A stretch of DNA of 64,000 bases from Microgenomates group bacterium Gr01-1014_16 (lineage in GTDB: Bacteria > Patescibacteriota > Microgenomatia > CAZETR01 > Amesbacteraceae). Shown here in pieces: positions 1 to 61,988 of this stretch. The stretch lies in NCBI GenBank assembly GCA_007376345.1, contig VMGA01000002.1:8309-72308 (forward strand). Reading direction: 5' to 3'. Each line of letters begins with the position of its first letter. Within the stretch, counting starts at the first letter, position 1. The notes under the pieces were generated by a model. It saw only the letters and a program-made list of their open reading frames with translations, did no database searches and was not told where the DNA came from. A program made the position numbers and the translations under genes.

Positions 1-519
1 GATAATAATTGCTTCTTCCGGCACTGCATGACTTAATGCATATTTTTTAAATAAGACCGCTTCTGGATCACGATTGGATTTATAGATTGGTGACCCACCG
101 GTGATTAATATTTTGGGAGCCATTTTTGATTTCCACAGGTCGATGGCTGTTTGAATCCTCAATGTACTCTGGCTGCCAAAAACGAAAATTAAGTCTGAAG
201 TTTTTGGACTATCGTTTTCTCCCAAATAAGCATAAATGTCGTTGGCTACGGTTTCCATATCCTCTAATGCTAATGTTCTTTGAACTACGTCCGTCTCAAG
301 TTCTGTTCCTTCAACGATAACTTCTTGCCAGGTTTTATCTGCAGTAAAAAGACCAGTGTCCAACTTTAATAAATTTAACCAAACGATCACCGAATCGAAT
401 TTGGGAAAGTGGATATTTTCTTTGCCTTTTGCAGGCTGACGCCAGGCCTCTTTCTTCATGATTTCCTCTAACTCTTTGACTGCCGGAAGCTGGGTGTAAG
501 AAGTCCTTTTAGTTGCCAT
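1..519 (-). CDS. DUF218/YdcF-like protein, 3' end truncated by the window edge (start codon at 519)
   Basis: Hand translation of the reverse strand gives MATKRTSYTQLPAVKELEEIMKKEAW...DLIFVFGSQSTLRIQTAIDLWKSKMAPKILITGG. The xVFG..R...A..L...ap.I.tGG pattern is typical of DUF218. The ORF track missed it because there is no stop inside the window. Confidence 0.45.
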   Translation of the reverse strand, partial: MATKRTSYTQLPAVKELEEIMKKEAWRQPAKGKENIHFPKFDSVIVWLNLLKLDTGLFTADKTWQEVIVEGTELETDVVQRTLALEDMETVANDIYAYLGENDSPKTSDLIFVFGSQSTLRIQTAIDLWKSKMAPKILITGGSPIYKSNRDPEAVLFKKYALSHAVPEEAIII

Positions 520-1333
520 GAAACTTGAAATCTGTGGGTGGTTTAATGTAACCAAATTTGGCAAATTTTTGTTTTTTTAAATATGCTGAAAGTTGATCTC
601 CATCGCCAAAGTGCCAGAATTCACCAGGATGAGCTACAAAGTCAAATTCGGGAGCTGTCAGAAGATGGAATAAAATACGTCTCATTTTCATCCTGGCAAT
701 ATTAATTTCATTTAATTGCTGTTTTTGCTCTAACACAAACGAATTAATGATATCCCCCGGATACGAGTAAGATAACGGACAACCCGTTTGTAAAGACCAA
801 AGTTCCAGGTCGCATGCTCCTCCGGTGGAATGGGGACTGACAGAAACAGAGGCAATGGCTTTGTCTACATATTTATTGCCAAATTCTTTGGACATGAGTT
901 TTTTTGAATCCGTTTGAGTTTGGGTGTCTCTCCAACCGCTGTTTATAACCAGAAAGAGGCCGTGAAGACGCAGGAGTAAATCGACTTTTCTCAACTTAGT
1001 AGCTATTGATTTTCTTAGCCAGGCGAATGGATACAGATTTCTATTTTGCAATTGATCTAATAGCTTTTCTTTTTTGGCAGTGATTTCGTCAAGGTAAACA
1101 TTGAGATAATAGTCTTTGCTAACCAACCCGTAGTCCCCGCAATTTACTAACTCCTCACTGTTATCTTTAATAGGAAGTTTTTGATATTCCTGCCTATATG
1201 ATCCGTCATTATTTTCACCAACCTGGGTCTTTTCCCATTCACTAAATATATATGGCTTTTCCATTAGATCAGCAGCCCAGCCATCAAATTTATGATCTGA
1301 AATCCTCTGGAACTGTTTTACACTGTCGTCCAT
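509..1333 (-). CDS. Peptidase M15 family, D-Ala-D-Ala dipeptidase (VanX)-like
   Basis: A 274-aa ORF with the motifs SPHSTGGACDLELW and HPGEFWHFGDGD, which match the VanX/M15D Zn-binding signatures SxHxxGxAxD and EWWH. Confidence 0.5.
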   Translation of the reverse strand: MDDSVKQFQRISDHKFDGWAADLMEKPYIFSEWEKTQVGENNDGSYRQEYQKLPIKDNSEELVNCGDYGLVSKDYYLNVYLDEITAKKEKLLDQLQNRNLYPFAWLRKSIATKLRKVDLLLRLHGLFLVINSGWRDTQTQTDSKKLMSKEFGNKYVDKAIASVSVSPHSTGGACDLELWSLQTGCPLSYSYPGDIINSFVLEQKQQLNEINIARMKMRRILFHLLTAPEFDFVAHPGEFWHFGDGDQLSAYLKKQKFAKFGYIKPPTDFKFHGN

Positions 1334-1362
1334 GCTGCTTGAGTAATTAGTTTACTACTTTC

Positions 1363-1378
1363 AATACTATCTGGTATT
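1363..1378. promoter_or_regulatory. Operator-like near-palindrome AATACTA-tc-TGGTATT followed by TATTAGAAAtaATG (copy of 38199-38224)
   Basis: Read from the sequence. Here the ATG opens only a 12-codon ORF. The site is in the upstream region of the M15 peptidase gene. Confidence 0.45.
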
Positions 1379-1398
1379 AGAAATAATGCGACCTTTTG

Positions 1399-1426
1399 AA
1401 TTACCATACTACAGAGTATGGTAATT
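1399..1426. repeat. 12-bp-stem hairpin aattaccatact-ACAG-agtatggtaatt (copy of the element at 38162-38189)
   Basis: A perfect inverted repeat. The stop codon of the HAD gene lies in its 3' arm. Confidence 0.7.
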
Positions 1427-1976
1427 AGACGAGTGTTAAAAACAAATCCAAAAGTTTTTGGCTGGATTCTTCCGGATGGACGGGGTCGTAGAGGAAGGTT
1501 TGCCAGCCAAATGATTTTGCTGCTTCAATGTGACGCGAGGTGTTCTCGATAAAAAGAATTTCGTTGCCTTTAACTCCTGCTTTTTGTTCTGCAAGTTTGA
1601 ATATTTTGGGATCCGGTTTGGCTAAGCCGACGACACTTGAGTCGATAATCACATTCCAATCCACTTCGGGCACGAGGCCGCTTTTTTTAATAGCATCAAA
1701 CATACCGGGGTACATGTTGGTGAGGAGACCGATGCGGTTTTTTGTGTGAATTTCGTTGATATCTGAATAAATGGACGGATTGGGTTCAAACCGGCTGACA
1801 AAAGCATTGAGAAATTCAGGACTGATTTTTTCTTTTCCCGCGCAGAGCTTCGGCTCAAAATCGTCCCAGTAAGCGTCGGTTATCCCCCACTCTTTTTTGA
1901 CTACTTCCCATTTATCCGTCCCACTAAAATCTAAAATTACTACCCCGCCTACATCAAAATATACAAATGAAATCAT
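1425..1976 (-). CDS. HAD superfamily hydrolase, subfamily IA
   Basis: N-terminal FDVGGVV (motif I), AKPDPKIF (the conserved Lys region) and a FIENTSRHIEAAKSFGW tail. Confidence 0.7.
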   Translation of the reverse strand: MISFVYFDVGGVVILDFSGTDKWEVVKKEWGITDAYWDDFEPKLCAGKEKISPEFLNAFVSRFEPNPSIYSDINEIHTKNRIGLLTNMYPGMFDAIKKSGLVPEVDWNVIIDSSVVGLAKPDPKIFKLAEQKAGVKGNEILFIENTSRHIEAAKSFGWQTFLYDPVHPEESSQKLLDLFLTLV

Positions 1977-13400: not shown

Positions 13401-13402
13401 GA

Positions 13403-15207: not shown

Positions 15208-15365
15208 TTGCGGTTTCCCCTTCGACAAGCTCAGGGTAAAAGATGCCACCTCAACTAATACTCAATTTGAAAGCTATTACGGGCTAACCCGGACTGGTTT
15301 TTGACCCCAATCGGCATTGTCCGATGGAATTCGAACTAAAGCGCTTTGGATTATTGTAACATTTC

Positions 15366-15416
15366 GGAAAAAATAAGCAAATTTACAAGTTGATGCGACC
15401 GCATAAACTTGTAAAT
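15366..15416 (-). terminator. AT-rich hairpin immediately after the CYTH gene stop, with a downstream T-run on the minus strand
   Basis: An 11-bp stem atttacaagtt / aacttgtaaat (15381-15391 and 15406-15416) with a 14-nt loop. A T6 lies 9 nt downstream on the minus strand. Confidence 0.35.
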
Positions 15417-15418
15417 GT

Positions 15419-16039
15419 TTATAGGCCTATGGATTTGGATTTAACTCTGCCTTTCTTTGGCAAGTTGGCAAAGGGGTTGTTTTCAAAGGTTAAATTCGAA
15501 GCCAAGGCTAATGTTTTCTTCACCGATAATTGGTAAGTATCAATAAGCATATCCATAGAATTGGAAATTAGATGTTGCGTCCAGTCGAACCCTAATTTTT
15601 CAGATAGTGATTTTATTTTGATTTCTGAATCTGATTCAATCTCACAATAGGTGTCTAAACCCGGCCAGGTATCAATATCTATGTGACAACTGTCAAGTTC
15701 CCAGGATTCTCTCAAGGTTTCTTGATATTTATCAGGTTCTAAATTCACTAGCTTTAATATTTCTACAGCTTTGTCGTAATTACTGATTACAATTTCTATT
15801 TCCTTTTCGTCTTCAATCTTTCCGGTTTTTGAGTGTGATTTGGTGCTCATGGTAATTTTACTACCTTCATCACGAATTCTGAGAAAGCCGCATTTGAATT
15901 CGGGATGAATTACTTGATCGTAAATTACTCTGCGCATTTTTCTTTCCGGCGAGACTAATTTTGCCCCAAGTGAGACTAATTTTCTTTGAAGAGCTAATTT
16001 ATCTACGGGGTAAAATTTGACTTCGAACTCTGTGTCCAT
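15419..16039 (-). CDS. CYTH domain protein (CyaB / thiamine-triphosphatase-like)
   Basis: The N-terminal MDTEFEVKF is the ExExK hallmark of the CYTH domain. The start is placed at the internal MDTEF, directly after the upstream stop. Confidence 0.55.
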   Translation of the reverse strand: MDTEFEVKFYPVDKLALQRKLVSLGAKLVSPERKMRRVIYDQVIHPEFKCGFLRIRDEGSKITMSTKSHSKTGKIEDEKEIEIVISNYDKAVEILKLVNLEPDKYQETLRESWELDSCHIDIDTWPGLDTYCEIESDSEIKIKSLSEKLGFDWTQHLISNSMDMLIDTYQLSVKKTLALASNLTFENNPFANLPKKGRVKSKSIGL

Positions 16040-16040
16040 G

Positions 16041-16604
16041 CTATAAACCGATATCAAGTGCAATTTGTTGCATGGCGGATAAAGAGGTTTGGACGAAGTC
16101 GGAGAGATTGATGCCTAATTCTTTTTCACAATGCATGATGTCTTCGCGCTTGGCGCCGGCGGCAAAACTCTTCTGCGGAAACTTTTTCAGAACTGATTCG
16201 ACGGATAGGTCGGATAAATGTTTGGAAGGAAGAACCAGGGCACAGGCGACGATGAGACCGGTCAGCTCGTCGCAGCAGAACAGCGACCACTGCATTTGGG
16301 TTTTTGGCAGTTTTCCTTCGTGGAACCAGCCATGAGACTCTATGCCTTCTAATAATTCTGTGTCAGTCTCCCCTAGTTCTCGAACCCAATTGGCCATCAT
16401 TTTGGCATGGTTCCTGGAATCGTCTTTGGTAAATTCGTAATCGCCGTCATGCAAAAGCCCGACTATGGCCCATTTATCTTCGTCGGCTTTAAAACATTTC
16501 GCTAAAGCTCGCATGACAACCTCGACGGACAGGCAATGACGAACTAAATTTTTGTTCGTCATCTTGGAATTGAGTAGATCAAAAGCCTGAAGTCTGGTGA
16601 TCAT
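16041..16604 (-). CDS. HD domain phosphohydrolase
   Basis: RHCLSVEVVMRALAK...IVGLLHDGDYE contains the H...HD motif. Confidence 0.6.
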   Translation of the reverse strand: MITRLQAFDLLNSKMTNKNLVRHCLSVEVVMRALAKCFKADEDKWAIVGLLHDGDYEFTKDDSRNHAKMMANWVRELGETDTELLEGIESHGWFHEGKLPKTQMQWSLFCCDELTGLIVACALVLPSKHLSDLSVESVLKKFPQKSFAAGAKREDIMHCEKELGINLSDFVQTSLSAMQQIALDIGL

Positions 16605-18049
16605 AGTCCGTAGATTTCTTTAGTCGTTTCTTCTAATTCAAAGCGGAGCTGGGGGAAAGGGACACCTTCGCGGGCGGTGACGTCTTCCAAAAACCAGAAA
16701 ACGCGCTCGGAGTGACCGTAACCAAAAGTCGGGGGCATGCCGTACTCCAGCATTTCCACATAATCAATGTCCAACCATTGGGCTTCCGCGTCACCGGCGT
16801 CGCGCATGGCTTGCTGTTTTTGGAACCGCTCCAGCTGATCCAGAGCGTCGTTGACCTCGGACCACCCGTTACCCAATTCTGAACCGGCAATAATAGGTTG
16901 GAAACGTTCTACTATATTGGGGTTATCAACGCTGGGTTTTTGTAAAGGAGACAGATATTTGGGATGGTTGATGAGAAAAGCCGGACCGGCAATATCTTTT
17001 CTTAGCTGTTTCCAGAGGGCATCGATGGCTCGGGGAAGATTGGGGACTTTTTCTTTTACTAAGGGCTGAATATCCTTGAGACTGGCCGTATAAATATCGA
17101 CATTAAATTTGTCTTTAAATAGCTTGCCGAAATCAATAATTTCCCATTCTTTGCCAAAATCGACGTCAAAACCGCGGATCTTAAAAAGAGCCTTGTCCCC
17201 ATAAACCGATTTGATGACATGAGCAAATAGATCCTTGATGATTTGCATGCCGTCCTGCCAGTCAGCATAGGCCCAGTAAAATTCCATGGCAATGTGTTCG
17301 GGTAGATGCTCGTCCGAGAGTCCTTCGTTTCTAAACCTGGGGCCGATTTCGTACACTTTTTCATAACCGCCACCAATAAGTCTTTTGAGATAAAGTTCCT
17401 GGGAAATGCGTAAATAAAAATCCTGATCAATGGCATCCATGTGAGTAACAAACGGGTTGGCATCCCCGCCTCCGGGAATGTGTTCTAAAACGGGGATATT
17501 TATTTCCACAAAACCTTTTTTCTTAAAGAATTCACGATGCGCTTCCCAAAATTTGGACCGGCGAAGAAAACGAGAGTAAACGTCAGGGTTGATATTGGTA
17601 TCTAAATAACGGCGGCGAAGCCGGGTTTCTTTGTCCTTTAGCCCGTCCCATTGATCCGGCAGGGGGCGGAGAGCTTTGGCCAGAAGGCGCAGGGAAATAG
17701 ATTCGACGGTAACTTCACCGGACTGAGTTTTCATAACATTGCCGGAAACTTCAATAAAATCACTTGAATCGATAAAACTTAGGTAGTGTTCGTCTTTTAA
17801 TAAAACCTGGATTTTTCCGGATGCGTCTTTGAGATCTAAAAAGGCGATTTGGCCATGAATTCTCATTGCCAAAACGCGTCCAGCGACAACGACCCGTTTG
17901 TTGTGATAGCCGGAATAATCTGAAAGAATGTCGCCGATTTGGGTATCGCGCAGAGATTTGGCCGGATATGGATCGATCCCTAGTTTTTTGATCTGTGCCA
18001 GTTTGGCGATCCGGTTTTGGCGAATTTCGGCGAGACGGGAAGAAGACAT
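16601..18049 (-). CDS. lysS: Lysyl-tRNA synthetase, class II
   Basis: An OB-fold anticodon-binding N-terminus and a class II core (FRNEGLSDEHLPEHIAMEFYWAYAD, GGGYEKVYEIGPRFRNE). It has an ATGA overlap with the downstream gene. Confidence 0.9.
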   Translation of the reverse strand: MSSSRLAEIRQNRIAKLAQIKKLGIDPYPAKSLRDTQIGDILSDYSGYHNKRVVVAGRVLAMRIHGQIAFLDLKDASGKIQVLLKDEHYLSFIDSSDFIEVSGNVMKTQSGEVTVESISLRLLAKALRPLPDQWDGLKDKETRLRRRYLDTNINPDVYSRFLRRSKFWEAHREFFKKKGFVEINIPVLEHIPGGGDANPFVTHMDAIDQDFYLRISQELYLKRLIGGGYEKVYEIGPRFRNEGLSDEHLPEHIAMEFYWAYADWQDGMQIIKDLFAHVIKSVYGDKALFKIRGFDVDFGKEWEIIDFGKLFKDKFNVDIYTASLKDIQPLVKEKVPNLPRAIDALWKQLRKDIAGPAFLINHPKYLSPLQKPSVDNPNIVERFQPIIAGSELGNGWSEVNDALDQLERFQKQQAMRDAGDAEAQWLDIDYVEMLEYGMPPTFGYGHSERVFWFLEDVTAREGVPFPQLRFELEETTKEIYGL

Positions 18050-18058
18050 GGGATTATT

Positions 18059-18517
18059 TTATTCTATTGCGACTATGGTGTACAGGATTTTGCCGGCGGG
18101 AGCGCTGACTTCCACTTTGTCGCCGACTTTTTTGCCCATTAAGGCTTGACCGAGAGGAGAAGAGGGGGAAATTTTCTTTTGGGCGGGGTTGGCTTCCCAC
18201 TCGCCGACGATATGAAAGATCGCCTGGGAAGTGTTGACATGAACGGTGACTTTGTGGCCGACGTCGATAGCATCACTGCCTGACGGCTGGGCTATCTGGG
18301 CGTTTTGGACCAGATTTTCCAGCTCGGAAATGCGGCCGTCGGTAAAGGCCAGCTCTTCTTTGGCGTCCTGGTAATCGTTGTTTTCCGACAAATCACCCAT
18401 GGAACGGGCGACTGACAGACGGTCGACCAAATGGGGACGTTTGACATCCACCAGCTCGGCCAGCTCTTTTTTGAGCTCTTCGAGGCCGATTGCAGTGATT
18501 AACATGGGATTATTCAT
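18059..18517 (-). CDS. greA: Transcription elongation factor GreA
   Basis: LITAIGLEELKKELAELVDVKRP...SMGDLSENNDYQDAKEE matches GreA. The start is at MNNPML (18517) or MLITAIG (18505). Confidence 0.85.
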   Translation of the reverse strand: MNNPMLITAIGLEELKKELAELVDVKRPHLVDRLSVARSMGDLSENNDYQDAKEELAFTDGRISELENLVQNAQIAQPSGSDAIDVGHKVTVHVNTSQAIFHIVGEWEANPAQKKISPSSPLGQALMGKKVGDKVEVSAPAGKILYTIVAIE

Positions 18518-18600
18518 AAGTATCCATGAACAAAAAATGCCTCGCTGGCGCGGGGCGAGAAGAAGCAAAGCTGGGGGTATTTTAGAACTCTAAACCTGGT

Positions 18601-18629
18601 TTGTCAAACGAGGCTAAAACAGGTAAAAT
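18601..18629 (+). promoter_or_regulatory. Sigma70-like promoter for tRNA-Glu
   Basis: TTGTCA (18601-18606), a 17-nt spacer, TAAAAT (18624-18629), then 12 nt to the tRNA 5' end. Confidence 0.5.
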
Positions 18630-18641
18630 GAACCCCATCAA

Positions 18642-18714
18642 GGCTCCATCGTCTAGTGGCCTAGGACATCAGATTCTCATTCTGATAACCCCGGTTCAAA
18701 TCCGGGTGGAGTCA
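18642..18714 (+). tRNA. tRNA-Glu (anticodon CTC)
   Basis: Hand-folded cloverleaf. The acceptor is GGCTCCA / TGGAGTC (one G-U pair). The D-stem is GTCT / GGAC. The anticodon stem is TCAGA / TCTGA with loop TTCTCAT. The T-stem is CCCGG / CCGGG with loop TTCAAAT. The discriminator is A. Length 73 nt; CCA is not encoded. Confidence 0.8.
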
Positions 18715-18744
18715 CATCACTTAACCATGGTATATTAGAAAGGT

Positions 18745-20421
18745 ATGGTCCTGCCCGATGAACAGCTGGCCGATTTGGTGATCAAAGCCAATCTTGCCGA
18801 CGCCAAAAAATTGGTCGAAGCCTACACCTACGTCAAGCACTCCAATGTTTCTTTGGAAGACGCCCTTCTGGAGCTTAAAATTACGACTGACGACCAGCTC
18901 GGCCAGGCAGTGGCCGCCCATCTCAAACTCCCCTTTGTCAGCCTCTCCAAAGTTTCCATCCCCGAGGAGGTCTTCGATCTTATCCCGCCTGTTGTCGCCC
19001 GCAAACAAAAAGCCGTTGCCTTCGCCCGGGATGCTACTGGCGTCAAAGTCGCCCTGGCCAATCCACAAAACGCCCAATTAATTGATCTTTTGGCCAAAAA
19101 GACTGGTCAAAAAGTCATTGTCCACTACGCTACATTCCGGGATATCCAAAACACCCTGCATCTCTTCAAAAAAGACTTGCAGGTCGAAGTGGACAATTTA
19201 CTCAAAGAAGATATAGGCCGGCCTACCGGCACGGATGACCCACCCGTTGCCAAAATTGTTGATTTATTAATTGACACTGCCTACGAAGAAAAAGCCTCCG
19301 ATATCCATATCGAACCCCAGGAAGCCACTTCTTCCATCCGCTTCCGTATCGACGGCATGCTCCAGGACGTTCTGTCCATCTCCAAGTTTTTGCACGAGCG
19401 CGTCATCACCCGTATCAAAGTCCTGTCAAACTTGCGGACAGACGAACATTTAGCCGCCCAGGACGGTAAAATGCGCGTCCCCTTAGAGGAAGAAAATCTG
19501 GATATTCGCGTTTCTATTCTTCCCATTGTCGACGGTGAGAAATCGGTCCTGCGGCTGCTATCTTCCCGTTCCCGCCAGTACACCCTGCAAAACTTGGGCA
19601 TGAACGACAAGGATCTGCAAAAAGTCTACAACGCCTATTCCAAGTCCTACGGCATGATCTTGTCTACTGGTCCCACCGGCTCCGGCAAAACTACTTCCAT
19701 TTATTCCATACTAAAGATCCTAAATACCCGCGAGAAAAATATTACTACCGTCGAAGACCCCGTCGAATACCGCATCCAGGGCGCCAACCAAATTCAGGTC
19801 AACCCCAAAACAAATCTCACCTTTGCATCCGGCCTGCGGAGTATTCTCCGCCAGGACCCCAATATAATTTTTGTGGGCGAAATCCGCGATTTCGAAACCG
19901 CCGGAATTGCCGTCAACGCTGCTCTGACCGGCCATTTGGTCGTGTCCACACTGCATACCAATGATGCGGCTACAGCAATTCCTAGGCTTACGGACATGAA
20001 AGTCGAACCGTTTTTGGTCGCTTCCACAGTCACGGTTGTCGTCGCCCAGCGTTTGGTCCGCCGCACCTGCCCCTCGTGCAAAATAGAGATGGCGCTTACC
20101 TTCGAAGAACTGGCCAAAAATTTCCCCTCCGACGTACTTAAAAGAAACGACATCAAAAAATCCGTTACCGTCTTCAAAGGCAAGGGCTGCAAAATCTGCC
20201 GCAATTCCGGCTACGCCGGCCGCGTTGGCCTGTTTGAAGTTCTGGAAATTACCCCCCAAATCCGCAAGCTGATTACCGCCAAAAGCGACGCCGACGTCAT
20301 AGCCAAAGCCGCTATCACAGAAGGCATGAAAACCATGCTCGATGACGGCATAGCCAAGATCCTTTCCGGGGAAACCACCGTTGAAGAAGTTCTTCGTGTT
20401 ACTAAGGCGGAATTTTTGTAA
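18745..20421 (+). CDS. pilB: Type IV pilus assembly ATPase PilB (GspE family)
   Basis: An N-terminal GSPII_E_N-like domain, Walker A GPTGSGKTTS, Asp and His boxes and a C-terminal CxxC...CxxC zinc motif (CPSCK...CKICRNSG). Confidence 0.9.
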   Translation: MVLPDEQLADLVIKANLADAKKLVEAYTYVKHSNVSLEDALLELKITTDDQLGQAVAAHLKLPFVSLSKVSIPEEVFDLIPPVVARKQKAVAFARDATGVKVALANPQNAQLIDLLAKKTGQKVIVHYATFRDIQNTLHLFKKDLQVEVDNLLKEDIGRPTGTDDPPVAKIVDLLIDTAYEEKASDIHIEPQEATSSIRFRIDGMLQDVLSISKFLHERVITRIKVLSNLRTDEHLAAQDGKMRVPLEEENLDIRVSILPIVDGEKSVLRLLSSRSRQYTLQNLGMNDKDLQKVYNAYSKSYGMILSTGPTGSGKTTSIYSILKILNTREKNITTVEDPVEYRIQGANQIQVNPKTNLTFASGLRSILRQDPNIIFVGEIRDFETAGIAVNAALTGHLVVSTLHTNDAATAIPRLTDMKVEPFLVASTVTVVVAQRLVRRTCPSCKIEMALTFEELAKNFPSDVLKRNDIKKSVTVFKGKGCKICRNSGYAGRVGLFEVLEITPQIRKLITAKSDADVIAKAAITEGMKTMLDDGIAKILSGETTVEEVLRVTKAEFL

Positions 20422-35643: not shown

Positions 35644-36711
35644 ATGATCGACGTTAAAAAGCAATTAGACGAGTTGAAGGTTCGTTTGGACCAAATCAAA
35701 GTAAAACTAGACCCAGACCAGAAGACAAAGCAGATTCGCGAACTTGAAGCCAAATCCACTAATCCGAATTTCTGGTCGGATCCGCAATCCGCTCAGGCCG
35801 CCATGAAACTTATGGCTTCGCTCCAGTCCGAAGGCAAACAAATTTCTGATTTAGAAACAGAAATCACCGATGCTTTATCCGTCTTAGAAATTCTGGAAGA
35901 AAAAGATGTTGTCAAAATAGAAAAAAAGCTAGGTAAATTAGAAATCAAGACCTTCTTAAACGGTTCTTATGATCAAAGTAACGCGGTTATTTCTATTCAT
36001 GCCGGCCAGGGCGGAGTAGAAGCCATGGACTGGGTTTCCATGCTCCTGCGCATGTATCTCAAATATTGTGAGAACCGGGGTTGGCAAACGGAAATAATCG
36101 ATCAAATGCCCGGGGAAGAGGCCGGGCTCAAAACAGTTACATTTACAGTTACAGGTTCCTACGCGTACGGTTATTTAATAGGGGAGCGTGGCACCCATCG
36201 CCTGGTCCGCCAGTCGCCCTTCAATGCCGACGCCCTCCGCCAAACCTCGTTCGCCCTCGTCGAAGTTTTGCCGGAACTTCCCGAAACCGATAGCGAAATA
36301 ATTATCCCGGAGGACGACATTTTATTTGAAGCCTCGCATGCTTCCGGCCACGGTGGTCAAAATGTTAATAAAGTTTCCACGGCTGTGAAACTTACCCACA
36401 AACCCACAGGAATTTCTGTCCAATGCCAAACCCAAAGATATCAGGAACAAAACCGCAAAATTGCCCTAAATCTTCTCAAGGCCAAACTTTGGGCCAAAAA
36501 ACAAGCAGAACATGCTTCTTTGGAAAAGAATCTCAAAGGCAAACATGTCGCCGCGTCCTGGGGTACCCAGATCCGCTCCTATGTCCTTCATCCCTACAAA
36601 TTGGTCAAAGATTTAAGGACTGGCGTCGAAACTTCCCAAGCCGAGTCGGTTTTAGACGGCGATCTGGATATGTTCATCGACGCCGAACTCCGCCAACTCC
36701 CGGGTGTATAA
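35644..36711 (+). CDS. prfB: Peptide chain release factor 2, encoded without a programmed frameshift
   Basis: SPF (RQSPFN) and GGQ ([15 protein letters not shown]) are present and the reading frame is continuous from [17 protein letters not shown] at 35631-35636 lies 7 nt upstream of the ATG. Confidence 0.9.
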
Positions 36712-36718
36712 TCGAACT

Positions 36719-37063
36719 ATGACTAACCCCCTCTCCAAACAATTTAAATTCACCCAATTAGTTTACTTTGATGCCAGAGACAAAAAATTCACCGGGGTGT
36801 GTTTGGAACTGAATCTGGTAGTCGAGTCAGACTCTCTTGAATCTACCATCACTCTTCTTAACGACGCGACCGTCTCCCATCTTCTAGCCGCAGCCGAAGT
36901 CGGTTTTCCCTCGGAACTAGTCTTCCGACCAGCCCCTGCTCACTATTGGCAAATGGCCAAATCGGTTTCAGCCAAAGTCGGCCAAGACAGGACCCTTTCG
37001 GCAGAAGAATTCGCCCTTTTCACCCAGAATATAACTCTTCCCGAACTGCATCATGCCGCATAA
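36719..37063 (+). CDS. hicB: HicB-like antitoxin
   Basis: FTGVCLELNLVVESDSLESTITLLNDATVSHL resembles the HicB N-terminal RNase-H-like fold. It is immediately upstream of the HicA-like gene, with an 11-nt overlap. Confidence 0.45.
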   Translation: MTNPLSKQFKFTQLVYFDARDKKFTGVCLELNLVVESDSLESTITLLNDATVSHLLAAAEVGFPSELVFRPAPAHYWQMAKSVSAKVGQDRTLSAEEFALFTQNITLPELHHAA

Positions 37064-37310
37064 CCCGCCGCTTTCTTACCGGGACGTCATCAAAATTCTC
37101 AAAAATCTTGGCTTTACACCTGCTCGCCACGCCAGCGGCAGCCACGAAACTTGGAAACTTCTTCGTAGTAATCGCTGGTATTCCGTCACGGTTTACTTCC
37201 ACGGCGGCCAAAACTTTCAACTTCCACCCAAAACCCTCAAATCCATGATTGAACAATCCGGCTTTTCGCCGGAAGAATTTTATTCAGCCAAAAAGAAAAA
37301 ACTCAAATGA
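37053..37310 (+). CDS. hicA: HicA family toxin (YcfA-like mRNA interferase)
   Basis: YRDVIKILKNLGFTPARHASGSHETWKL...VTVYFHGGQNFQLPPKTLKSMIEQSG is the HicA pattern (GSH...H). Confidence 0.65.
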   Translation: MPHNPPLSYRDVIKILKNLGFTPARHASGSHETWKLLRSNRWYSVTVYFHGGQNFQLPPKTLKSMIEQSGFSPEEFYSAKKKKLK

Positions 37311-38149
37311 CTTGGTTAATTCTCGCCAGTACGGCAGCAGTGCTCTTTTCGCTAAATAGCCTTTTGGGGCGGGTTTTGGCAGTAAAAAGCCAAAATCCCC
37401 GAGCCTTTGCCTTTGTTTACAATTTATTTGGAGCTCTTTTTGCGCTCGGGCTTTGGTTCCTACATCCCCAGCCCATCTCTAACGTTCCGCCACTTGCCTG
37501 GCAGCTGCTTGTTTTGTCAATCATACTTTATGGGGTCTTCAACCGTTTTGAATTCTATGCCCGGAAGCACGTTGAGTCTTCCACCCTTTCTATACTGACC
37601 AAATTTATTCCAGTTATAACTTTTACTCTTTCTATCGTTATCTGGAAGGAAACCGTAACTCTAAATAAACTCCTCGCCGCAGCATTAATTATCGGGGGAA
37701 CTATGGCCGCGGTCTACAAAAAAGGTAGAATAGAGTTTAACCAAGGCCTAAAATACGCCGCAATAATAATCGTTTCTTTAGGCCTTGCCTGGACGGTAGA
37801 TAAAAAAGCCTCGTCATACTTTCCCTTGGCTCTATATGCATTCGCCACATATCTTCCCCCCAACATTTTTTTGTTGCCATTCCCATTTCTTAAGTGGTCG
37901 CAAATCGTCACCGAAATAAAATTGGCCAACTGGAAAATTGCCTTTCTAGCCTTCGTAAACATGACTGCTTACTATACTTTGATCTCCGCCTTCCAATACG
38001 GGGAGGCCTCCAAAGTAGTCTTAATTACCTCAACTTCGACTATTCTCACGGTCATTGCTGGGATAACCTTACTTAAAGAAAGAGAAAATATTTCGCGAAA
38101 AATCGTGGCTGCACTTATAGTTGTTATTGGAGCCCTACTTTTGAAGTAG
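37307..38149 (+). CDS. EamA/DMT family transporter
   Basis: A 280-aa ORF with about 10 predicted TM helices and two EamA-like halves. It has an ATGA overlap with the upstream gene. Confidence 0.65.
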   Translation: MTWLILASTAAVLFSLNSLLGRVLAVKSQNPRAFAFVYNLFGALFALGLWFLHPQPISNVPPLAWQLLVLSIILYGVFNRFEFYARKHVESSTLSILTKFIPVITFTLSIVIWKETVTLNKLLAAALIIGGTMAAVYKKGRIEFNQGLKYAAIIIVSLGLAWTVDKKASSYFPLALYAFATYLPPNIFLLPFPFLKWSQIVTEIKLANWKIAFLAFVNMTAYYTLISAFQYGEASKVVLITSTSTILTVIAGITLLKERENISRKIVAALIVVIGALLLK

Positions 38150-38161
38150 TTACTTTTACAC

Positions 38162-38189
38162 AACTCCCATACTACAGAGTATGGGAGTT
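38162..38189. repeat. 12-bp-stem hairpin aactcccatact-ACAG-agtatgggagtt. A covarying copy lies at 1399-1426
   Basis: A perfect inverted repeat with the same ACAG loop and CCATACT core as at 1399-1426. The two stem differences between the copies are compensatory. Confidence 0.7.
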
Positions 38190-38198
38190 ATTAATTAC

Positions 38199-38214
38199 AA
38201 TACTACCTAGTATT
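38199..38214. promoter_or_regulatory. Operator-like palindrome AATACTA-cc-TAGTATT, 8 nt upstream of the ATG; it is copied at 1363-1378
   Basis: The stretch aatactacctagtattagaaaatATG is 21 of 23 nt identical to aatactatctggtattagaaataATG at 1363-1388. Confidence 0.5.
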
Positions 38215-38221
38215 AGAAAAT

Positions 38222-38731
38222 ATGCATTATGTCTCGAGGGCTGGAGAAAAGTTAGAGTTTGCCCTGGCCACCTGGCACATTAATGTCACGGGTTTAATCT
38301 GTGCCGATTTGGGCTGTAGTGCGGGAGGATTTACGGACTGCTTGTTACAGCGCGGAGCGGCCAAAGTTTATGCCGTTGACACCGGATATGGTGTTTTGGA
38401 TTGGAAATTAAGAAACAATTCGAGAGTAATTGTCATGGAGCGAACCAACGCCTTGCATGTCAAACTACCCGAATTAGTGGATTTTGTATCTATAGACGTC
38501 GGTTGGACTCCACAGCGGCTGATTTTGCCCGTCGCTAAGACATTGTTAAAGCCCGGCGGCCAAATAATTTCATTAATAAAACCCCACTACGAAGCCAAAA
38601 AAGCCCACCTAACGCCCGACGAGGCGAAAAACATAGCCGACCAATTTGCCCAATTAGGCCAATTAGTCCAATCACCCATTACCGGTCAAAAAGCCGGCAA
38701 CGTGGAGTATCTCTTGCGTATGTTATACTAG
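38222..38731 (+). CDS. tlyA: TlyA family rRNA (cytidine-2'-O)-methyltransferase, lacking the N-terminal S4 domain
   Basis: SRAGEKLEFAL...DLGCSAGGFTDCLLQRGAAKVYAVDTGYGVLDWKLRNNSRV closely matches TlyA/FtsJ-like SAM motifs. Confidence 0.75.
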   Translation: MHYVSRAGEKLEFALATWHINVTGLICADLGCSAGGFTDCLLQRGAAKVYAVDTGYGVLDWKLRNNSRVIVMERTNALHVKLPELVDFVSIDVGWTPQRLILPVAKTLLKPGGQIISLIKPHYEAKKAHLTPDEAKNIADQFAQLGQLVQSPITGQKAGNVEYLLRMLY

Positions 38732-42753: not shown

Positions 42754-45700
42754 ATGGCTCAACCAACCGTCATTTTGCCCCGCCACCGACGGACTATGTT
42801 GGGTGCGGGCGTCTCTCATAATGGCCGGGAGTATATCACCCATTCCACCCTTCCCCACCACCTCTCTGCCCATATTACTCTAGTCCTCTGGCAGAAAATA
42901 TTTCTCCTCTTACTGTTACTGTTACTGCTTACAGGTTTATTCTTTTATCCCTGGGCCACCGCCATCGGATTCATAGCTGTTTTGACCGCCGTCTACTTCG
43001 CCGACGCCGTATTTAACTTCATTTTGATCTTCAAATCCCTCCACTTCCCCCCCGAAATCACCTTCTCGGATATTGAACATCGAACATTGAACATTGGACA
43101 TTTACCCACATATTCTATCTTATGTCCCCTCTACCGCGAAGCCCGCGTCCTTCCCCAGTTCGTCGAGGCCATTTCCGCTCTCGACTGGCCCAAAGCCAAG
43201 CTGGACGTCCTGCTTCTCCTGGAGGAGGATGACACAACCACAATCGAGGTCGCCCATAGCCTTAATCTGCCCTCATATTTCCGGACAATCATCGTTCCGG
43301 TTTCACAACCCAAAACCAAACCCAAAGCCTGCAATTATGGCTTGAGCTACGTCAAAGGTGAATATGTGGTCGTTTACGACGCCGAGGACCGCCCCGAACC
43401 CGACCAGCTCAAAAAGGCCTATCTGGCCTTCCAAAAAGTTCCGGCTTCGGTCACCTGTCTTCAATCCAAGCTCAACTACTACAACCCCCGCCACAATCTG
43501 CTCACCCGCCTCTTCACCGCCGAATATTCTCTCTGGTTCGACGTAGTTTTGCCCGGCCTTCAGTCGATCAACACCACCCTCCCCCTGGGCGGTACCTCCA
43601 ACCACTTCCGCACCAAAATCCTAAAAAAGCTTCATGGCTGGGACGCCTTCAACGTCACCGAGGACTGCGATCTGGGTTCCCGTCTTTTCAAAGCCGGCTA
43701 CACCACGGCTATTATCGACTCCACCACTTACGAAGAAGCCAACAGTCAGTTGGGTAACTGGATCAGGCAGCGCTCGCGTTGGATCAAGGGCTATCTCCAG
43801 ACCTTTCTCGTCCACAACCGCCACCCCCTGAAGTTTTTGCGCGACCACGGTTGGCATGCCCTCATTTTCCAGCTGATAGTCGGCGGCAAGATCGCCTTTA
43901 TGCTCATCAACCCCTTCCTCTGGCTCATGACCTTCGCCTACTTCACTCTTTATAGCTTCGTCGGCCCGGCCATCGAATCTCTTTATCCCGCTCCCGTCTT
44001 CTACATGGCCGCCTTCTCTGCTGTTTTCGGTAACTTTCTCTATCTCTACTACTATATGATCGGCTGCGCCAAACGCGGCCATTGGGATCTCATCAAATAT
44101 GTCTTCTTTATTCCCCTCTACTGGCTTTTTATCAGCATCGCCGGCTTCAAAGCCCTGGCCCAGTTGATCCTGCGCCCCCACTACTGGGAAAAAACCCACC
44201 ACGGCTTCCATCTTGACCGGGCCGAATCTTCCTTCCTGCGCTCCCAAATCATCTCCCGTTTCGGTTGGGTTCGTCCTTTAGCCGGGCATCGCCTCACCGG
44301 CGCCACGCTTTTAGTCGCCTCGGCCGCAGCCGCCAATTTCTTCAATTTTCTCTACAATGCCTATCTGGGCCGGGTTTTGTCCGCATCCGATTTCGGTTTA
44401 GTAGCCCTCATGGGCAGCCTGATATTTATTGTCAATCTTCCGATCGGCGCCCTCTCCGGAACTGTTTCCTATCGGGCTTCCTATCTCATTGGCAAGTTCG
44501 GTAGCACAGCCCAAGCCTTTTGGTCACTCATCCGCCGTCGCTCAATCATGGTCGCTATTTTGTGTGTCCTTGTCTGGCTGGTTCTCTCGCCCTGGCTGGC
44601 CGGTTTTTTCCGCTCCCCCGACATCCTGCCTTTTTGGCTCTTCGCTCCCATTTGGACCATCGCCTTCACTGCTGCCGTCGACCGGGGTTTCTTAACCGCC
44701 AACCTCCGCTTTTTCACTTTGGCGGTGGTCATTCTGGGTGAGGCCTTGTCCAAATTTGGCCTGGCCGTGTTATTTGTTCATCTGGGCTATCCCCAGCTGG
44801 TCTACGCCGCCATTCCTTTGTCCATGGTTTTACCGTTGGGCATTGGCTGGTGGGTAGCTCGCAGAACCACCTCACCCGTCGTTTTGGACCCCTCCCATAT
44901 TACCTATTTCCCCAGGCGTTATTTTGCCACCTCGATTCTTATGGGTCTATCCGCTCTTGGGTTTTTGAGCTTGGACGTGATTTTAGCCAAGCGCTTTTTG
45001 GATCCCGTCTCCGCCGGCAACTACGCCCTGCTTTCCCTGGTTGGCAAAATGATCTATTTCTTCGGCAAGCTGGTTTCCCAATTTACTATCCCCCTGGTCA
45101 GCCGGGCCGAAGGCGAGGGCGCCGATTCCCAAAAAGTCTTTCTGCCCATCTTTCTCCTGTCCGTTTTTGCTACTACTGCCGGCTTTGTAGCCTTAGGCCC
45201 ACTGGGCCATCTCACCGTCCCCCTCTTACTGGGCGCCAAGACTATCCCGATATTGCCATATCTCACTCTCTATTCCCTGGCCCTGGCTCTCTATACCATG
45301 ACGACTACCGTCATTGATTACCACCAGGCCCGCCGCCACTATCTTTTTCCCGTCACCGGTTTCTTTTTAGCCATTGCCCAAGTCGTCGCCCTGTCCTTTT
45401 TTCACGACCACCTATCCATGTTGGTCAACGTCATCTTTGCCTTGAGCCTGTTTTATTTCCTGCTCATTACCGGCCTGCATTTCACCTATGACGCAATAAT
45501 AATTATTTTTCACAACCTCCACGATTTACTGGACCTTTTTTTCTTGAGGCTCAACGGCCGCCGCCCCCTGCCCTCCGACAAACTGCGCATTTTAGCTTTC
45601 AACTGGCGGGATACCAAACACGTCTGGGCCGGTGGGGCGGAAGTATATTTACACGAAGTAGCCAAGCGCTGGGTCACGGCCGGACACACAGTCACTCTTT

Positions 45701-58526: not shown

Positions 58527-59798
58527 ATGACTACATTTAGAAAACAAATAGTAGCTGCAGTTTCCGCCTCTGTCATGTTTTTAAGCATGGCCGCCCCGGT
58601 TTTTGCAGAAACTACCATAGTAATTTCCGGCAATGGAGCCAATTCGGATAGCAAAAGTGATGTCCAGTTTACTGGCGACACGACTGTTACCCAAACCAAC
58701 CAGGCTTCCATTTCCAACAACATTGACGCAGACGCTGATACCGGCAAAAACGACGCCAACCAGAATACGGGAGGCTCGGTTTTGGTCAAAACCGGTGACG
58801 CGACAACTGGTGTCAGTGTAGAAAACGTGGTCAACAGCAACCAGGCTTCTGTAGATTGTTGCACCGCTGGCGATACGGATATCGAAATCTCCGGCAACGG
58901 AGCTGATACGAAAAACGATGTCAAGCTCAAAAACGACGCTGACGTCTCTCTGTACCAGACCAACGAGGCTGATATTTACAACCGGGTTGATGCCGACGCC
59001 GATACGGGCAAAAACGATGCCAACCAGAATACGGGTGGCGATGTTGAAGTCAGGACAGGTGACGCCTCTACTTGGGTTGGGGTATCCAATACCGCCAACG
59101 CCAACTGGGCACAAATCGGAGACGGTGGCCAGGGCTCACTTTCCGCAAGGATTTTGGGCAATGGTTTCAATTCGGACAACAAAATAGATTTGGATTTGGA
59201 CAATGACACCACTTTGGTGCAAACCAATTTGGCGGACATCACCAACTACATCTATGCGGACGCTGATACAGGCAAAAACGACGCCAACCAGAATACGGGT
59301 GGCAGCGTTCTAGTCGATACTGGTGATGCCGAAACCGGTGTAGAAGTCGACAATTTGGTCAACTTCAACTGGGCCGATGTTGATTGCGGTGGCTGCGTCT
59401 TGGACCTTTTGGCCAAGGTAGCCGGCAACGGTGCTGATACGAAAAACGAGATCAAGCTCAAGCTTGATAACGATTTGGAAGTTTATCAGACCAACGTATG
59501 CGGTGACGAGGGACGGCCCTGGTTCGAACTTTGGGATTACCAAGGTTATGAAGAGGATTGTTCAACTCGCGTTGACGCAGACGCTGATACCGGCTCTAAC
59601 GACGCCAACCAAAACACTGGCGATCCGGAAGGGGATCCTTCCGTCTTAACCGGCGATTCTGCCTCGTTCGTCGAGGTGAGTAATTCCGGCAACGTCAACT
59701 CTTATGGAGTTGGTGGAGGAGAGTGGCCCGACTTTGATTTTGAGTTCAACCTTTCGTTGAACTTAAATGACTTGTTGAGCTTGCTCGACTTGATCTAA
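58527..59798 (+). CDS. Secreted protein built from four ~70-aa Asp-rich repeats
   Basis: A signal peptide (MTTFRKQIVAAVSASVMFLSMAAPVFA), then four repeats of the form GNGA(N/D)(S/T)..N....QTN.A.I.N..DADADTGKNDANQNTGG.V.V.TGDA.T.V.V.N. Confidence 0.6.
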   Translation: MTTFRKQIVAAVSASVMFLSMAAPVFAETTIVISGNGANSDSKSDVQFTGDTTVTQTNQASISNNIDADADTGKNDANQNTGGSVLVKTGDATTGVSVENVVNSNQASVDCCTAGDTDIEISGNGADTKNDVKLKNDADVSLYQTNEADIYNRVDADADTGKNDANQNTGGDVEVRTGDASTWVGVSNTANANWAQIGDGGQGSLSARILGNGFNSDNKIDLDLDNDTTLVQTNLADITNYIYADADTGKNDANQNTGGSVLVDTGDAETGVEVDNLVNFNWADVDCGGCVLDLLAKVAGNGADTKNEIKLKLDNDLEVYQTNVCGDEGRPWFELWDYQGYEEDCSTRVDADADTGSNDANQNTGDPEGDPSVLTGDSASFVEVSNSGNVNSYGVGGGEWPDFDFEFNLSLNLNDLLSLLDLI

Positions 59799-59864
59799 GG
59801 CTATATCTTGTGGGGTGGATCCGCTAGCACTTCAGCGGGACACCCTGCAAGTATAGAAAAAAAT

Positions 59865-61988
59865 ATGAAACTAAAAAAACTATTATCAATAATTGCCCTG
59901 ACGGCACTGTTTACAGTCCAGATTCTGCCTGTCTCTGCCCAGGAGGCTCCGCCCCAACCGCCTACTGCCCCCACCGCCCCGGTTGCGCCTACAGCCCCGC
60001 CCGCTCCTACTGCTCCTACCGCTCCTACTCCACCCCCGCCGCCCCCGCCACCTTTGCCCGCCGAAGCCTTGGCGGAGGAGGGTCCTTCCCCCACCGAAGT
60101 CCCCACTGCTTCTACCCAGTCAGAAGAGCCAACGAGCCTTCCCGAGGAAACTAGTGGCCAAACCCAGGACGGAAATTCAGGAGACACCAATATTACAACC
60201 GGCGACGCTAACAACTCCGGTGTAGTAGTGAGCGAGGCCAACAATAATTTATTGGCCGACTCCGGCCCCGGCATCCTGGAAGTGGTCAATGAGGGTAACG
60301 GTGCCGAGTCCCAAAATACCGGTTCAGTCACCGTAGCCGAGACGAACACTTCGGTTCAACAAAATGAAGCCGAGGTCCAAAATAATCTCGATTTAGGCAG
60401 CGTTACCGGCCAAAATTCAGCCTCTTACACTACCGGCGGCGACGCCAATATCAAAACCGGCGACGCCAACGTTTCCGGAACTGCCATTACCGCCGTAAAC
60501 ACCAATGTGGACGCCGTTTCCGTCTCCGAATTCAATATCGCCGACAACCACGTCGGAGACTATATTTTGGATTTTGCCGCCAACTGTGTCTCGGGTTGCA
60601 GCTCGGGTGATGCCGTCGCCAAAAATTCCGGCAATGGAGCCAACTCCGTCAACGACGCCGATATTTCCCAAGACGTAAATAACCTCGACTTCCAGTCCAA
60701 CTCGGCCACCGTCGGCAACTCCATGATCCTAAATGCCGACTCCGGCGCCAACCAGGCCAACTACCAAACCGGCGGGGATTCCAATATTACAACCGGTGAC
60801 GCCAACGTTTCCGCGTCCTCGCTGACTTTGGCCAATAACAACTTGAGTGGCAACGTCATTTACGGCGTAGTCAATATTTATGGGGACTTGATAGGGGACA
60901 TTATCTTTCCCGAGGAAGCCCTGGCCGGCTGCTGCGCTTCTTCGGCTACAGCTGCCAATATAGGAAACGGAGCTGATTCGACCAACACCGCCAACATCGA
61001 TTCCACTCTCACCGACTCCACCATCCAGAGTAACGACGTGGTTATCGAAAACACCCTCGTTCTGGACGCCGATACCGGTGCCAATAAGACTTCCGGCAAT
61101 ACCGGCGGCGACTCCGCCATTTCTACGGGCGATTCCAACGTTACCGCCCAGGTCTTAAACGTCGCCAATTCCAACATTTCCGGCGGTACCTGGTGGCTGG
61201 TTTTGGTCAACGAAGCCGGCCAGTGGATAGGCCGCATTTTAGGCGCACCCGTTGGCGCCAATTATGCCGGCTCGGCTGACACCCAATTCACAGTCGGCCA
61301 GTCCGGAGAAATTACCGCCGTCAACTCCGGCAACGGTTCCGGCTCCACCAATGATGCCAATGTCTCCCAAACCACGACTAACACCACGGTCCAGACAAAT
61401 TCCGCTACCGTCCAAAACGACCTGAAATTAACTGCCAACACCGGCGGTAATTCTGCTTCTTACAATACCAACGGCGATTCCAATATCCAAACCGGCGACG
61501 CCACTATCATGGCCAATATCGTCAACTTTGTGAACAACAATGTCACCGGCGGCGGCAAATTATTTGTCACAGTCGTCAACGTCTTTGGCAGCTGGCTAGG
61601 TGACTTTGTCACTCCCGGCAGCCATAAAACACCTCCAGTCGCAGAAGTTCCCGCACCCGCCCCAGAACCAGCTGTTGGCGGGGCCGAAATTCCTGCCGTC
61701 CAATCTTCTACATCTAATCCCTCTGATTCCTCTAATTCATCTAACTCCTCTCCTTCCGTTGCTTCCGTATCAGTTCAATCCCGCGTCATCCGCCGCCGCG
61801 TCGCCGGCCTTTCCACCTCTTTCCCTTCAGTCGAATCTCCAGTCCTCGCGTCCGAATCCGTTGTTTCTCCCGACCCCGGTCCCGCCCGCAATAAAGTTCG
61901 CATCAACCTCGCCTGGCTCCTTTTAGGCCTCCCCTTACTCCTGCCCGTTTACCTCCGCTTCCGCCGTCCCCGCATCGTCCAGGTTTGA
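59865..61988 (+). CDS. Secreted paralogous repeat protein with a Pro-rich linker, four ~75-aa GNGA.S...QTN/QNN...TGG..NI.TGDANV repeats and a C-terminal hydrophobic plus basic tail
   Basis: The start is at MKLKKLLSIIALTALFTV. The linker is QEAPPQPPTAPTAPVAPTAPPAPTAPTAPTPPPPPPPP. The repeats are separated by VVN..G.W.G.I segments. The C-terminus is LAWLLLGLPLLLPVYLRFRRPRIVQV. Confidence 0.6.
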   Translation: MKLKKLLSIIALTALFTVQILPVSAQEAPPQPPTAPTAPVAPTAPPAPTAPTAPTPPPPPPPPLPAEALAEEGPSPTEVPTASTQSEEPTSLPEETSGQTQDGNSGDTNITTGDANNSGVVVSEANNNLLADSGPGILEVVNEGNGAESQNTGSVTVAETNTSVQQNEAEVQNNLDLGSVTGQNSASYTTGGDANIKTGDANVSGTAITAVNTNVDAVSVSEFNIADNHVGDYILDFAANCVSGCSSGDAVAKNSGNGANSVNDADISQDVNNLDFQSNSATVGNSMILNADSGANQANYQTGGDSNITTGDANVSASSLTLANNNLSGNVIYGVVNIYGDLIGDIIFPEEALAGCCASSATAANIGNGADSTNTANIDSTLTDSTIQSNDVVIENTLVLDADTGANKTSGNTGGDSAISTGDSNVTAQVLNVANSNISGGTWWLVLVNEAGQWIGRILGAPVGANYAGSADTQFTVGQSGEITAVNSGNGSGSTNDANVSQTTTNTTVQTNSATVQNDLKLTANTGGNSASYNTNGDSNIQTGDATIMANIVNFVNNNVTGGGKLFVTVVNVFGSWLGDFVTPGSHKTPPVAEVPAPAPEPAVGGAEIPAVQSSTSNPSDSSNSSNSSPSVASVSVQSRVIRRRVAGLSTSFPSVESPVLASESVVSPDPGPARNKVRINLAWLLLGLPLLLPVYLRFRRPRIVQV

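Follow-up and report, generated by a model that had tools for sequence, protein, structure and literature searches.

Candidate Tandem Operator Clusters for a TrpR-Like Regulator of the Candidate Phyla Radiation in a Microgenomates Genome

A 64,000-nt stretch of the genome of Microgenomates group bacterium Gr01-1014_16 (contig VMGA01000002.1; the whole stretch is referred to here as the window) carries two pairs of palindromes, cluster A upstream of a gene for an M15-family peptidase and cluster B upstream of a tlyA gene. Comparison with other genomes of the candidate phyla radiation (CPR) indicates that these are probably two tandem operator clusters for a CPR-wide TrpR-like protein of the YerC/YecD family, duplicated from the promoter region of the regulator gene itself. 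Each cluster comprises one long-armed, hairpin-type site (hairpin A or B) and one short palindrome (site 2 A or B). A preliminary description of the window had already located the two hairpins, each with a 12-bp stem and ACAG at its center, and the two short palindromes, and all four lie where it placed them; it regarded hairpin and short palindrome as two distinct parts of a composite element, whereas both are variants of one motif, ATACT-N4-AGTAT.

One Motif at Four Sites in the Window

The four predicted operators are as follows.

38159..38192, no strand assigned: hairpin B, predicted hairpin-type operator; perfect palindrome at 38162-38189; AACTCCCATACT ACAG AGTATGGGAGTT

38190..38223, no strand assigned: site 2 B, predicted short-arm operator; core AATACTACCTAGTATT at 38199-38214

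1396..1429, no strand assigned: hairpin A, predicted hairpin-type operator; perfect palindrome at 1399-1426; AATTACCATACT ACAG AGTATGGTAATT

1354..1387, no strand assigned: site 2 A; core AATACTATCTGGTATT at 1363-1378, 30 nt upstream of the minus-strand start of the M15 peptidase gene

The arms of both hairpins are perfect over 12 bp; hairpin B is laid out as inner half-sites ATACT and AGTAT around the center ACAG, flanked by outer arms AACTCcc and ggGAGTT. The hairpins share the core ATACT-N4-AGTAT with the short palindromes, and a repeat finder assigns site 2 B to the same family as both hairpins. An 18-mer core occurs twice in the window (0.01 occurrences expected), and ATACT-N4-AGTAT with at most one mismatch occurs six times (1.0 expected). 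When a 34-nt weight matrix was trained on 63 sites, all from other genomes, it picked exactly these four sites in the 64-kb window, with scores of 36.4 bits for hairpin A, 35.8 for hairpin B, 26.8 for site 2 B, and 23.0 for site 2 A; the next best position in the window scores 4.4 bits, and the maximum over 50 simulated windows was 20.7.

The architecture of the motif was compared across 66 unique sites. Mirror complementarity reaches 15–16 nt from the center and drops to background beyond that point, which fixes the size of the palindrome at ~32 bp. The consensus, TAnCTwCC-ATACT-N4-AGTAT-GGwAGnTA, resolves the full site into four nnACT half-sites over ~32 bp (outer half-site, 3 nt, inner ATACT, 4-nt center, AGTAT, 3 nt, outer half-site), so that the half-sites on each side repeat every 8 bp, as in the trp operators of E. 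coli; in Saccharibacteria the paired half-sites take the form ATACTAcc ATACTAca. The central four bases vary across regulator loci (ACAG, CCAG, ATCT, AGGT, ACGT, CTGT) but the arms do not. By this layout the hairpin would be a full site and site 2 a site with weaker outer arms.

Two TrpR-family regulators provide a reference for this layout: the TrpR half-site is GNACT, the two half-sites being separated by a spacer of eight base pairs, and the motif of HisR (YerC) is cacTTTAnnnnnnTAAAgtg (cacTTTAn6TAAAgtg; PMC9413887). The sites described here are palindromes of GNACT-like half-sites with 8-bp periodicity. With nnACT half-sites and an 8-bp period, and unlike the HisR motif, the CPR sites therefore follow the grammar of TrpR-family operators with a sequence of their own.

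The Motif Across Genomes and Its Linkage to a TrpR-Like Gene

The preliminary description had allowed that no further copies of the element might exist, but many were found across CPR phyla. The exact 18-mer (CCATACTACAGAGTATGG) is present in 27 loci of the genome collection (individual loci are cited here by L numbers). About 19 of the 27 come from CPR genomes, which are a small part of the collection, and these span Levy-, Curtiss- and Amesbacteria, Saccharibacteria, Doudnabacteria, WWE3, and Parcubacteria. Chance alone would yield ~17 matches in 596 Gb by our own arithmetic, with which the non-CPR matches agree; the latter lie within coding sequence and are without extended arms, and extended arms (8–24 bp) are confined to the CPR matches.

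Among the CPR loci, two copies of the 18-mer bracket a gene of 174–185 aa in L004 and L011, and a copy lies at the 3′ end of a TrpR-like gene in L005 and L009. The same linkage emerged from an independent, protein-first search, in which metagenome contigs were searched with the regulator protein alone: of the 63 loci recovered, ~25 have ATACT-N4-AGTAT (at most one mismatch) both 21–29 bp upstream of the start and ~450–470 nt into the gene, and in most other close homologs both of these positions are occupied by a variant, CCAYRCTACAGTGYRTGG. At regulator genes, the upstream palindrome has a TTGACA-like hexamer 0–12 nt to its left and contains a −10-like hexamer (TATGGT, TACAGT, or CATACT), and the start codon follows within ~8–30 nt. 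The regulator gene is thus preceded by a site that overlaps its own promoter, and the upstream copy fills the space between the TTGACA-like −35 box and the start, which implies autorepression by promoter occlusion.

In one set of loci with TTACCTTCC arms (L035–L038, L043, L046, L047), the right outer arm of the upstream site, GGAGGGTAA, is found 7–10 nt before the ATG and resembles a Shine-Dalgarno sequence, to which the left arm, CCCTTCC, is complementary. In a recurrent arrangement, gyrA comes after the TrpR-like gene on the same strand, often within 20–30 nt (L004, L009, L028–L033, L040–L045, L053, L055, L060, L064, L077, L081, L099), and the regulator may therefore control gyrA. Other neighbors of the TrpR-like gene include gyrB, dnaB, uvrA, holB, and the gene for inorganic pyrophosphatase.

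The TrpR-Like Protein

The candidate regulator is a protein of ~185 aa that matches Pfam PF01371 (Trp_repressor; E 1e-15 to 1e-19) and, above its cut-off, NCBIfam TIGR02531 (YerC/YecD). Its first ~100 residues match solved TrpR-like structures by sequence, and a predicted model (predicted local distance difference test score, pLDDT, 79) adopts the TrpR fold, with a target-normalized TM-score of 0.84 to 3FRW; the TrpR–operator complexes 1TRO and 1TRR (tandem-binding) are matched by the model as well. The protein continues into a helical C-terminal extension of ~80 aa, of which residues 111–178 are modeled as extra helices without a structural match. The preliminary description had proposed looking for a transcription factor encoded nearby in a complete genome; a candidate can now be named, although the window does not encode it. 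A PF01371/TIGR02531 protein is encoded adjacent to the sites in related CPR genomes.

CPR genomes also encode a second, shorter TrpR-like paralog (L022 2402-2761; L099 12120-12564; L035 8508-8960; L048 9920-10372). A different regulator, such as LexA or this second paralog, could in principle own the sites and control the YerC-like gene among others; the YerC-like gene does lie among genes of DNA metabolism (uvrA, dnaB, gyrB, gyrA, holB), and the recognition helix is unchanged between motif variants. We regard this as very improbable, given that the nnACT half-site and the 8-bp period fit the TrpR family as reported (PMC9413887), that the sites flank specifically the 185-aa form, at fixed distances, and that no ATACT-N4-AGTAT site was seen beside the shorter paralogs in L022 or L099. 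LexA boxes were provisionally dropped as a candidate on account of the linkage of the motif to the TrpR-like gene and of a sequence that does not fit; NrdR boxes, considered because of the 31- and 42-bp spacing of the paired sites (see below), were dropped on the same two grounds.

DNA Sites or RNA Structures

The hairpins of clusters A and B differ at two stem positions, and the preliminary description correctly stated that both differences are mirrored in the 3′ arm; it took this mirroring as the signature of selection on RNA structure, a conclusion that the wider family of sites does not bear out. The arms are the outer half-sites of the motif, and the differing positions, at distances 10 and 12 from the center, are among the most variable in the family (T, A, or C at 10; C or T at 12) and often asymmetric: symmetry is found in 65% of the 66 unique sites at distance 10 and in 62% at distance 12. 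Many relatives have asymmetric arms, and L041 has the same arm variants as the window in asymmetric combinations. Mirrored changes in a palindrome should not be read as RNA covariation, since they arise equally at a symmetric site for a protein.

It is nonetheless conceivable that the hairpins act as RNA, as terminators or 3′-end stabilizers of the genes upstream of them (for an EamA transporter at B and for a haloacid dehalogenase-type, HAD, hydrolase at A), that their stem changes reflect selection for pairing, and that the short palindrome alone is an operator. Both hairpins begin within 13 nt of the upstream stop codon or overlap it, and many intergenic copies in relatives also come after stop codons. 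Folding of both strands, a check that the preliminary description had proposed, gave stable structures on either strand in both regions (region B, z-scores −5.8 and −4.9; region A, −2.6 and −2.9); stems reach a considerable length in some sites (24 bp in L003), and arm symmetry exceeds that of a shuffle control. The earlier suggestion of a terminator nevertheless finds no support, as neither hairpin has a T-run (tail at B, plus strand, ATTAATTAC; tail at A, minus strand, CAAAAGG) and strict terminator scans called none at either. The sense strand reads ACAG in B but CUGU in A, and the orientation of the motif flips likewise between L004 and L011; the commonest location in relatives is inside a promoter, upstream of the start codon; and centers such as the self-complementary ACGT of some relatives leave no loop. 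About 27% of outer-arm positions are unpaired, mostly through transversion mismatches, which can pair on neither strand, and any bias toward G-U pairs is weak (25 G:T vs. 14 A:C and 41 other); the fixed length of the palindrome, in which complementarity stops ~16 nt from the center, also speaks against selection for pairing. No Rfam family matches the hairpins: a scan of the window with Rfam 15 at the gathering score returned only a tRNA, and the best sub-threshold matches of a permissive scan around B reached 15 bits against cut-offs of 35–98. On balance a primary role as RNA appears unlikely, although the hairpins, if transcribed, may have a secondary effect at the RNA level.

Gene Context and Origin of the Window Copies

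The genes and other features around the two clusters are listed below (ORF, open reading frame).

509..1333, minus strand: M15-family peptidase gene (D-Ala-D-Ala dipeptidase-like; Pfam PF01427)

1387..1425, plus strand: ORF of 12 codons (MRPFELPYYRVW) whose start context matches that of site 2 B

36704..38161, plus strand: segment between prfB and tlyA with two small ORFs and an EamA transporter gene (37307-38149), ending at hairpin B

38153..38158, plus strand: TTACAC, a −35-like hexamer, counterpart of TTGCAC in the L041 regulator promoter

38222..38731, plus strand: FtsJ/TlyA-family rRNA methyltransferase gene (tlyA; Pfam PF01728 and names of homologs)

Cluster B is located between the EamA stop (38149) and the ATG of tlyA (38222), and so leads into a TlyA-like gene as the preliminary description had reported. 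This gene, the presumed target of cluster B, heads a tlyA-orf-ftsE-ftsX-M23 peptidase cluster whose gene order is conserved in relatives. A −10-like sequence (TAGTAT/TATTAG) lies inside site 2 B, 5–8 nt 5′ of the tlyA ATG, in keeping with the earlier proposal that the short palindrome would be a dimeric operator overlapping a −10-like sequence; TTACAC at 38153..38158 may be the corresponding upstream promoter element. Cluster A sits between the stop codon of the HAD hydrolase gene (1425-1427), which hairpin A overlaps, and the start of the M15 peptidase gene (1333), its presumed target, both genes being on the minus strand. The ATG at 1387 opens just 12 codons, also as described, and this ORF is probably a relic of a duplicated module of site 2 plus ATG, and not a gene. 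The module order of cluster A had been called inverted; this inversion vanishes when the cluster is read from the downstream M15 gene, on the minus strand, and the order toward the downstream gene is then common to both clusters: stop codon of the upstream gene, hairpin-type site, site 2, start codon. The centers of the paired sites are 31 bp apart in cluster B and 42 bp apart in cluster A.

Near-copies of the window sites flank the regulator gene in L041. Hairpin A is identical at 29 of 30 positions to the site upstream of that gene, and hairpin B at 28 of 29 to the site at its 3′ end; the similarity extends beyond the palindrome, in that window positions 38153-38190 (hairpin B plus its left flank) match the regulator promoter at L041 796-833 in 33 of 38 positions (87%). 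The 16-mer of site 2 B is the reverse complement of the site upstream of the regulator gene in L009, L040, L044, and L045. Site 2 A and site 2 B have in common a degenerate right arm, TAGAAA(A)TA(A)TG, which the consensus does not explain and which points to duplication within this genome. These near-copies support the suggestion of the preliminary description that the element is a duplicated promoter or small regulatory unit.

In relatives L092–L098, whose TlyA is 67–76% identical, the stop codon of prfB abuts the start of tlyA, and no motif is found at the prfB-tlyA junction; compared with these, the window contains 1.45 kb of additional sequence (36704-38161), which ends at hairpin B. L091, a 960-nt contig that encodes an identical TlyA protein, is identical to the window from 38162 on and diverges exactly there; at 247-341 it carries three tandem sites with centers 33 and 32 bp apart, and upstream of these a G+C-rich hairpin and a gene different from those of the window. 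Orthologs of the M15 peptidase (52–63% identity) in relatives are likewise without sites. Conserved regulation of tlyA or of the M15 gene by such sites was therefore rejected, as relatives have no sites there, and the window copies appear to be recent and lineage-specific.

Mobile Repeats as an Alternative Reading

A pattern of this kind might also be expected if the palindromes were small mobile or recombinogenic repeats, of the type of repetitive extragenic palindromes (REPs) or miniature inverted-repeat transposable elements (MITEs), which spread by themselves and mark cassette boundaries, any regulatory effect being secondary. The absence of sites at orthologous positions, the 1.45-kb insertion that ends at a hairpin, the strain with an identical TlyA protein that has a third site and departs from the window sequence precisely where the hairpin begins, and the degenerate flank shared by the two site 2 copies are all in line with this idea, as is the bracketing of one gene by two copies, since REPs bracket the genes of REP-associated transposases. 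However, the bracketed gene encodes a TrpR-fold protein and not a transposase, and its order with gyrB and gyrA is kept across lineages; copy number is low (four sites in 64 kb, and two to four exact cores per genome among the genomes matched); and no terminal repeats or target duplications were seen by eye at the window copies (38162, 1399).

Exact copies of the 18-mer are also found in frame inside unrelated genes (L002 1904-1921; L021 816-833; L023 624-641; L026 2497-2514; L001 376-393; L027 4441-4458), which would suit a mobile element. The in-gene 18-mer is read as [ST]ILQSME in RsmI, in a 6-phosphogluconate-dehydrogenase-like gene, and in a GT2 glycosyltransferase; it is in reverse orientation in phosphoglycerate kinase (PGK) and is read as PHTTEYG in the alanyl-tRNA synthetase of two genomes. 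Evidence for insertion as the origin of these copies points both ways: compared with its E. coli counterpart, RsmI has gained a 9-aa insertion at the site, but the PGK copy arose without a change in length, by substitution or short-patch conversion. Membership among REPs, with their associated Y1 transposase, or among MITEs, with terminal inverted repeats, target-site duplication, and high copy number, was rejected on the grounds of the TrpR-fold product and conserved order of the bracketed gene, the low number of sites, and the lack of target duplications on inspection by eye; the broader notion of self-spreading repeats is improbable in our judgment.

Comparison with Known Systems

The closest parallel to the inferred regulator–operator pair is TrpR of E. 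coli. The DNA-binding domain of the CPR protein is predicted to have the same fold; the operators of both are palindromes of nnACT half-sites that overlap the core promoter (trp, aroH, and trpR operators in E. coli); and the CPR regulator appears to control its own gene. In the 18–20-bp trp operator the half-sites interleave. The CPR half-sites, in contrast, stand side by side (outer, inner, 4-nt center, inner, outer) over ~32 bp, with the consensus CCATACT-ACAG-AGTATGG; the CPR protein has an extra helical C-terminal region of ~80 aa, its gene carries a second site at, or within, the 3′ end, and tryptophan genes play no part. HisR, a TrpR-family protein that acts as the histidine repressor of Firmicutes (YerC in Bacillus subtilis), belongs to the same NCBIfam family (TIGR02531), has a palindromic operator, and is frequently autoregulated; it differs in its length (~100 aa, without a C-terminal extension), in its motif (cacTTTAnnnnnnTAAAgtg as opposed to ATACT-N4-AGTAT), and in its targets, which are histidine biosynthesis and transport genes. 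None of these lies beside the CPR sites, whose neighbors are tlyA-ftsEX, the M15 peptidase gene, gyrA, and others, and assignment to the HisR regulon was therefore rejected.

The CIRCE/HrcA system is similar in another respect: CIRCE is a perfect inverted repeat that is nearly unchanged across distant lineages, occurs at promoters, and is able to form a stable RNA hairpin. Its protein family, sequence, and regulon are unrelated to those considered here, and no heat-shock genes are involved in the CPR case. REP elements and their associated transposases share with the CPR sites the scattering of short palindromes between genes and the bracketing of one gene by two copies, and differ in that the gene bracketed in the CPR encodes a TrpR-fold regulator in place of a Y1 transposase, copy number is very low, and the sites keep their positions at the regulator gene from one phylum to another. 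The element is best filed, as a prediction, as a new member of the TrpR-family repressor–operator kind. No paper tying the TrpR-like protein or the motif to CPR bacteria was found in a search that subscription journals largely lay beyond.

Other Features of the Window

Directly upstream of the HAD gene lie a gene for an AbiEii-type toxin (a nucleotidyltransferase) and a small ORF that overlaps it (1977-2642 and 2573-2839). The G+C content of bases 1-16000, at 41–44%, is below that of most of the remaining window (41–53%, mostly 47–53%). At ~16000-18750, around a tRNA-Glu gene (18642-18715), the gene strand switches from minus to plus and GC skew changes sign, with a polarity opposite to the usual one for diverging genes; a replication origin whose strand composition is unusual could account for this. 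Large genes made of tandem coding repeats (264 nt and ~333–366 nt), rich in the codon pattern GGCGACGCCAA, occupy 58527-61988, and a direct repeat of the TATTGAACATTGAACATTG type occurs at two places, 43071-43096 and 63441-63480.

Discussion

In the mechanism proposed here, the TrpR-like regulator would bind each full site, probably as two dimers, and would do so cooperatively across both sites of a cluster, the spacings of 31 and 42 bp corresponding to 3 and 4 helical turns and thus allowing cooperative binding on one face of the DNA. At its own gene, which in relatives is flanked by the same two site types, it would repress transcription by promoter occlusion. Near-identical copies of these sites, together with part of the left flank of the regulator promoter, would have been placed before tlyA-ftsEX and before the M15 peptidase gene; because the sites overlap the start region of both, regulator bound there would repress or otherwise gate transcription initiation, and two cell-envelope and ribosome-related units would thereby join the regulon. 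The identity of the binding protein, the direction of regulation, the positions of the promoters, and the ligand are what we infer in this scheme; what is observed is a motif family of defined architecture that is linked to the regulator gene and missing from the orthologous loci.

Several observations weigh against this scheme. A protein other than the TrpR-like one could recognize the sites and have the TrpR-like gene among its targets. No homolog of the regulator is encoded in the 64-kb window, nor was its gene located in the same assembly. Lineages with the ATACT core and those with a CAYRCT core have practically the same recognition helix, and for this reason there is no protein–DNA co-variation to back the assignment. 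The central ACAG is conserved asymmetrically in many lineages, a pattern not accounted for by a simple symmetric operator; the arms of certain sites exceed in length and perfection what binding of a protein requires (24 bp in L003, 16 bp in L012); and at distances of 8, 10, and 13 from the center, arm symmetry is above the shuffle control. The exact 18-mer copies inside unrelated coding sequences would be unusual for a small regulon, and a strict σ70 consensus scan gave no promoter at either window cluster.

With these points taken into account, operator clusters of a TrpR-like regulator remain the probable explanation of the window elements. A broader proposal is put forward tentatively: that Patescibacteria possess an undescribed, conserved TrpR-like regulator with a C-terminal extension, encoded in the gyrB-gyrA neighborhood, together with a portable promoter-operator cassette of ~32 bp. 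If this were so, the cassette would be copied to the fronts of new genes, would mark the breakpoints of strain-level insertions, and would even enter coding sequence as [ST]ILQSME; the regulon would be rewired by the movement of one sequence module and not by the gradual evolution of new sites. The portable-cassette aspect is suggestive but unproven.

Transcriptional regulation in CPR bacteria (Patescibacteria) is almost unknown, and the sites described here offer a concrete and testable pairing of regulator and operator that extends from Microgenomates to Saccharibacteria. The candidate targets are the regulator itself, often gyrA, and, in the present genome, tlyA-ftsEX and a cell-wall peptidase gene, and the 18-mer would serve as a convenient marker by which the regulon could be mapped in any CPR genome.

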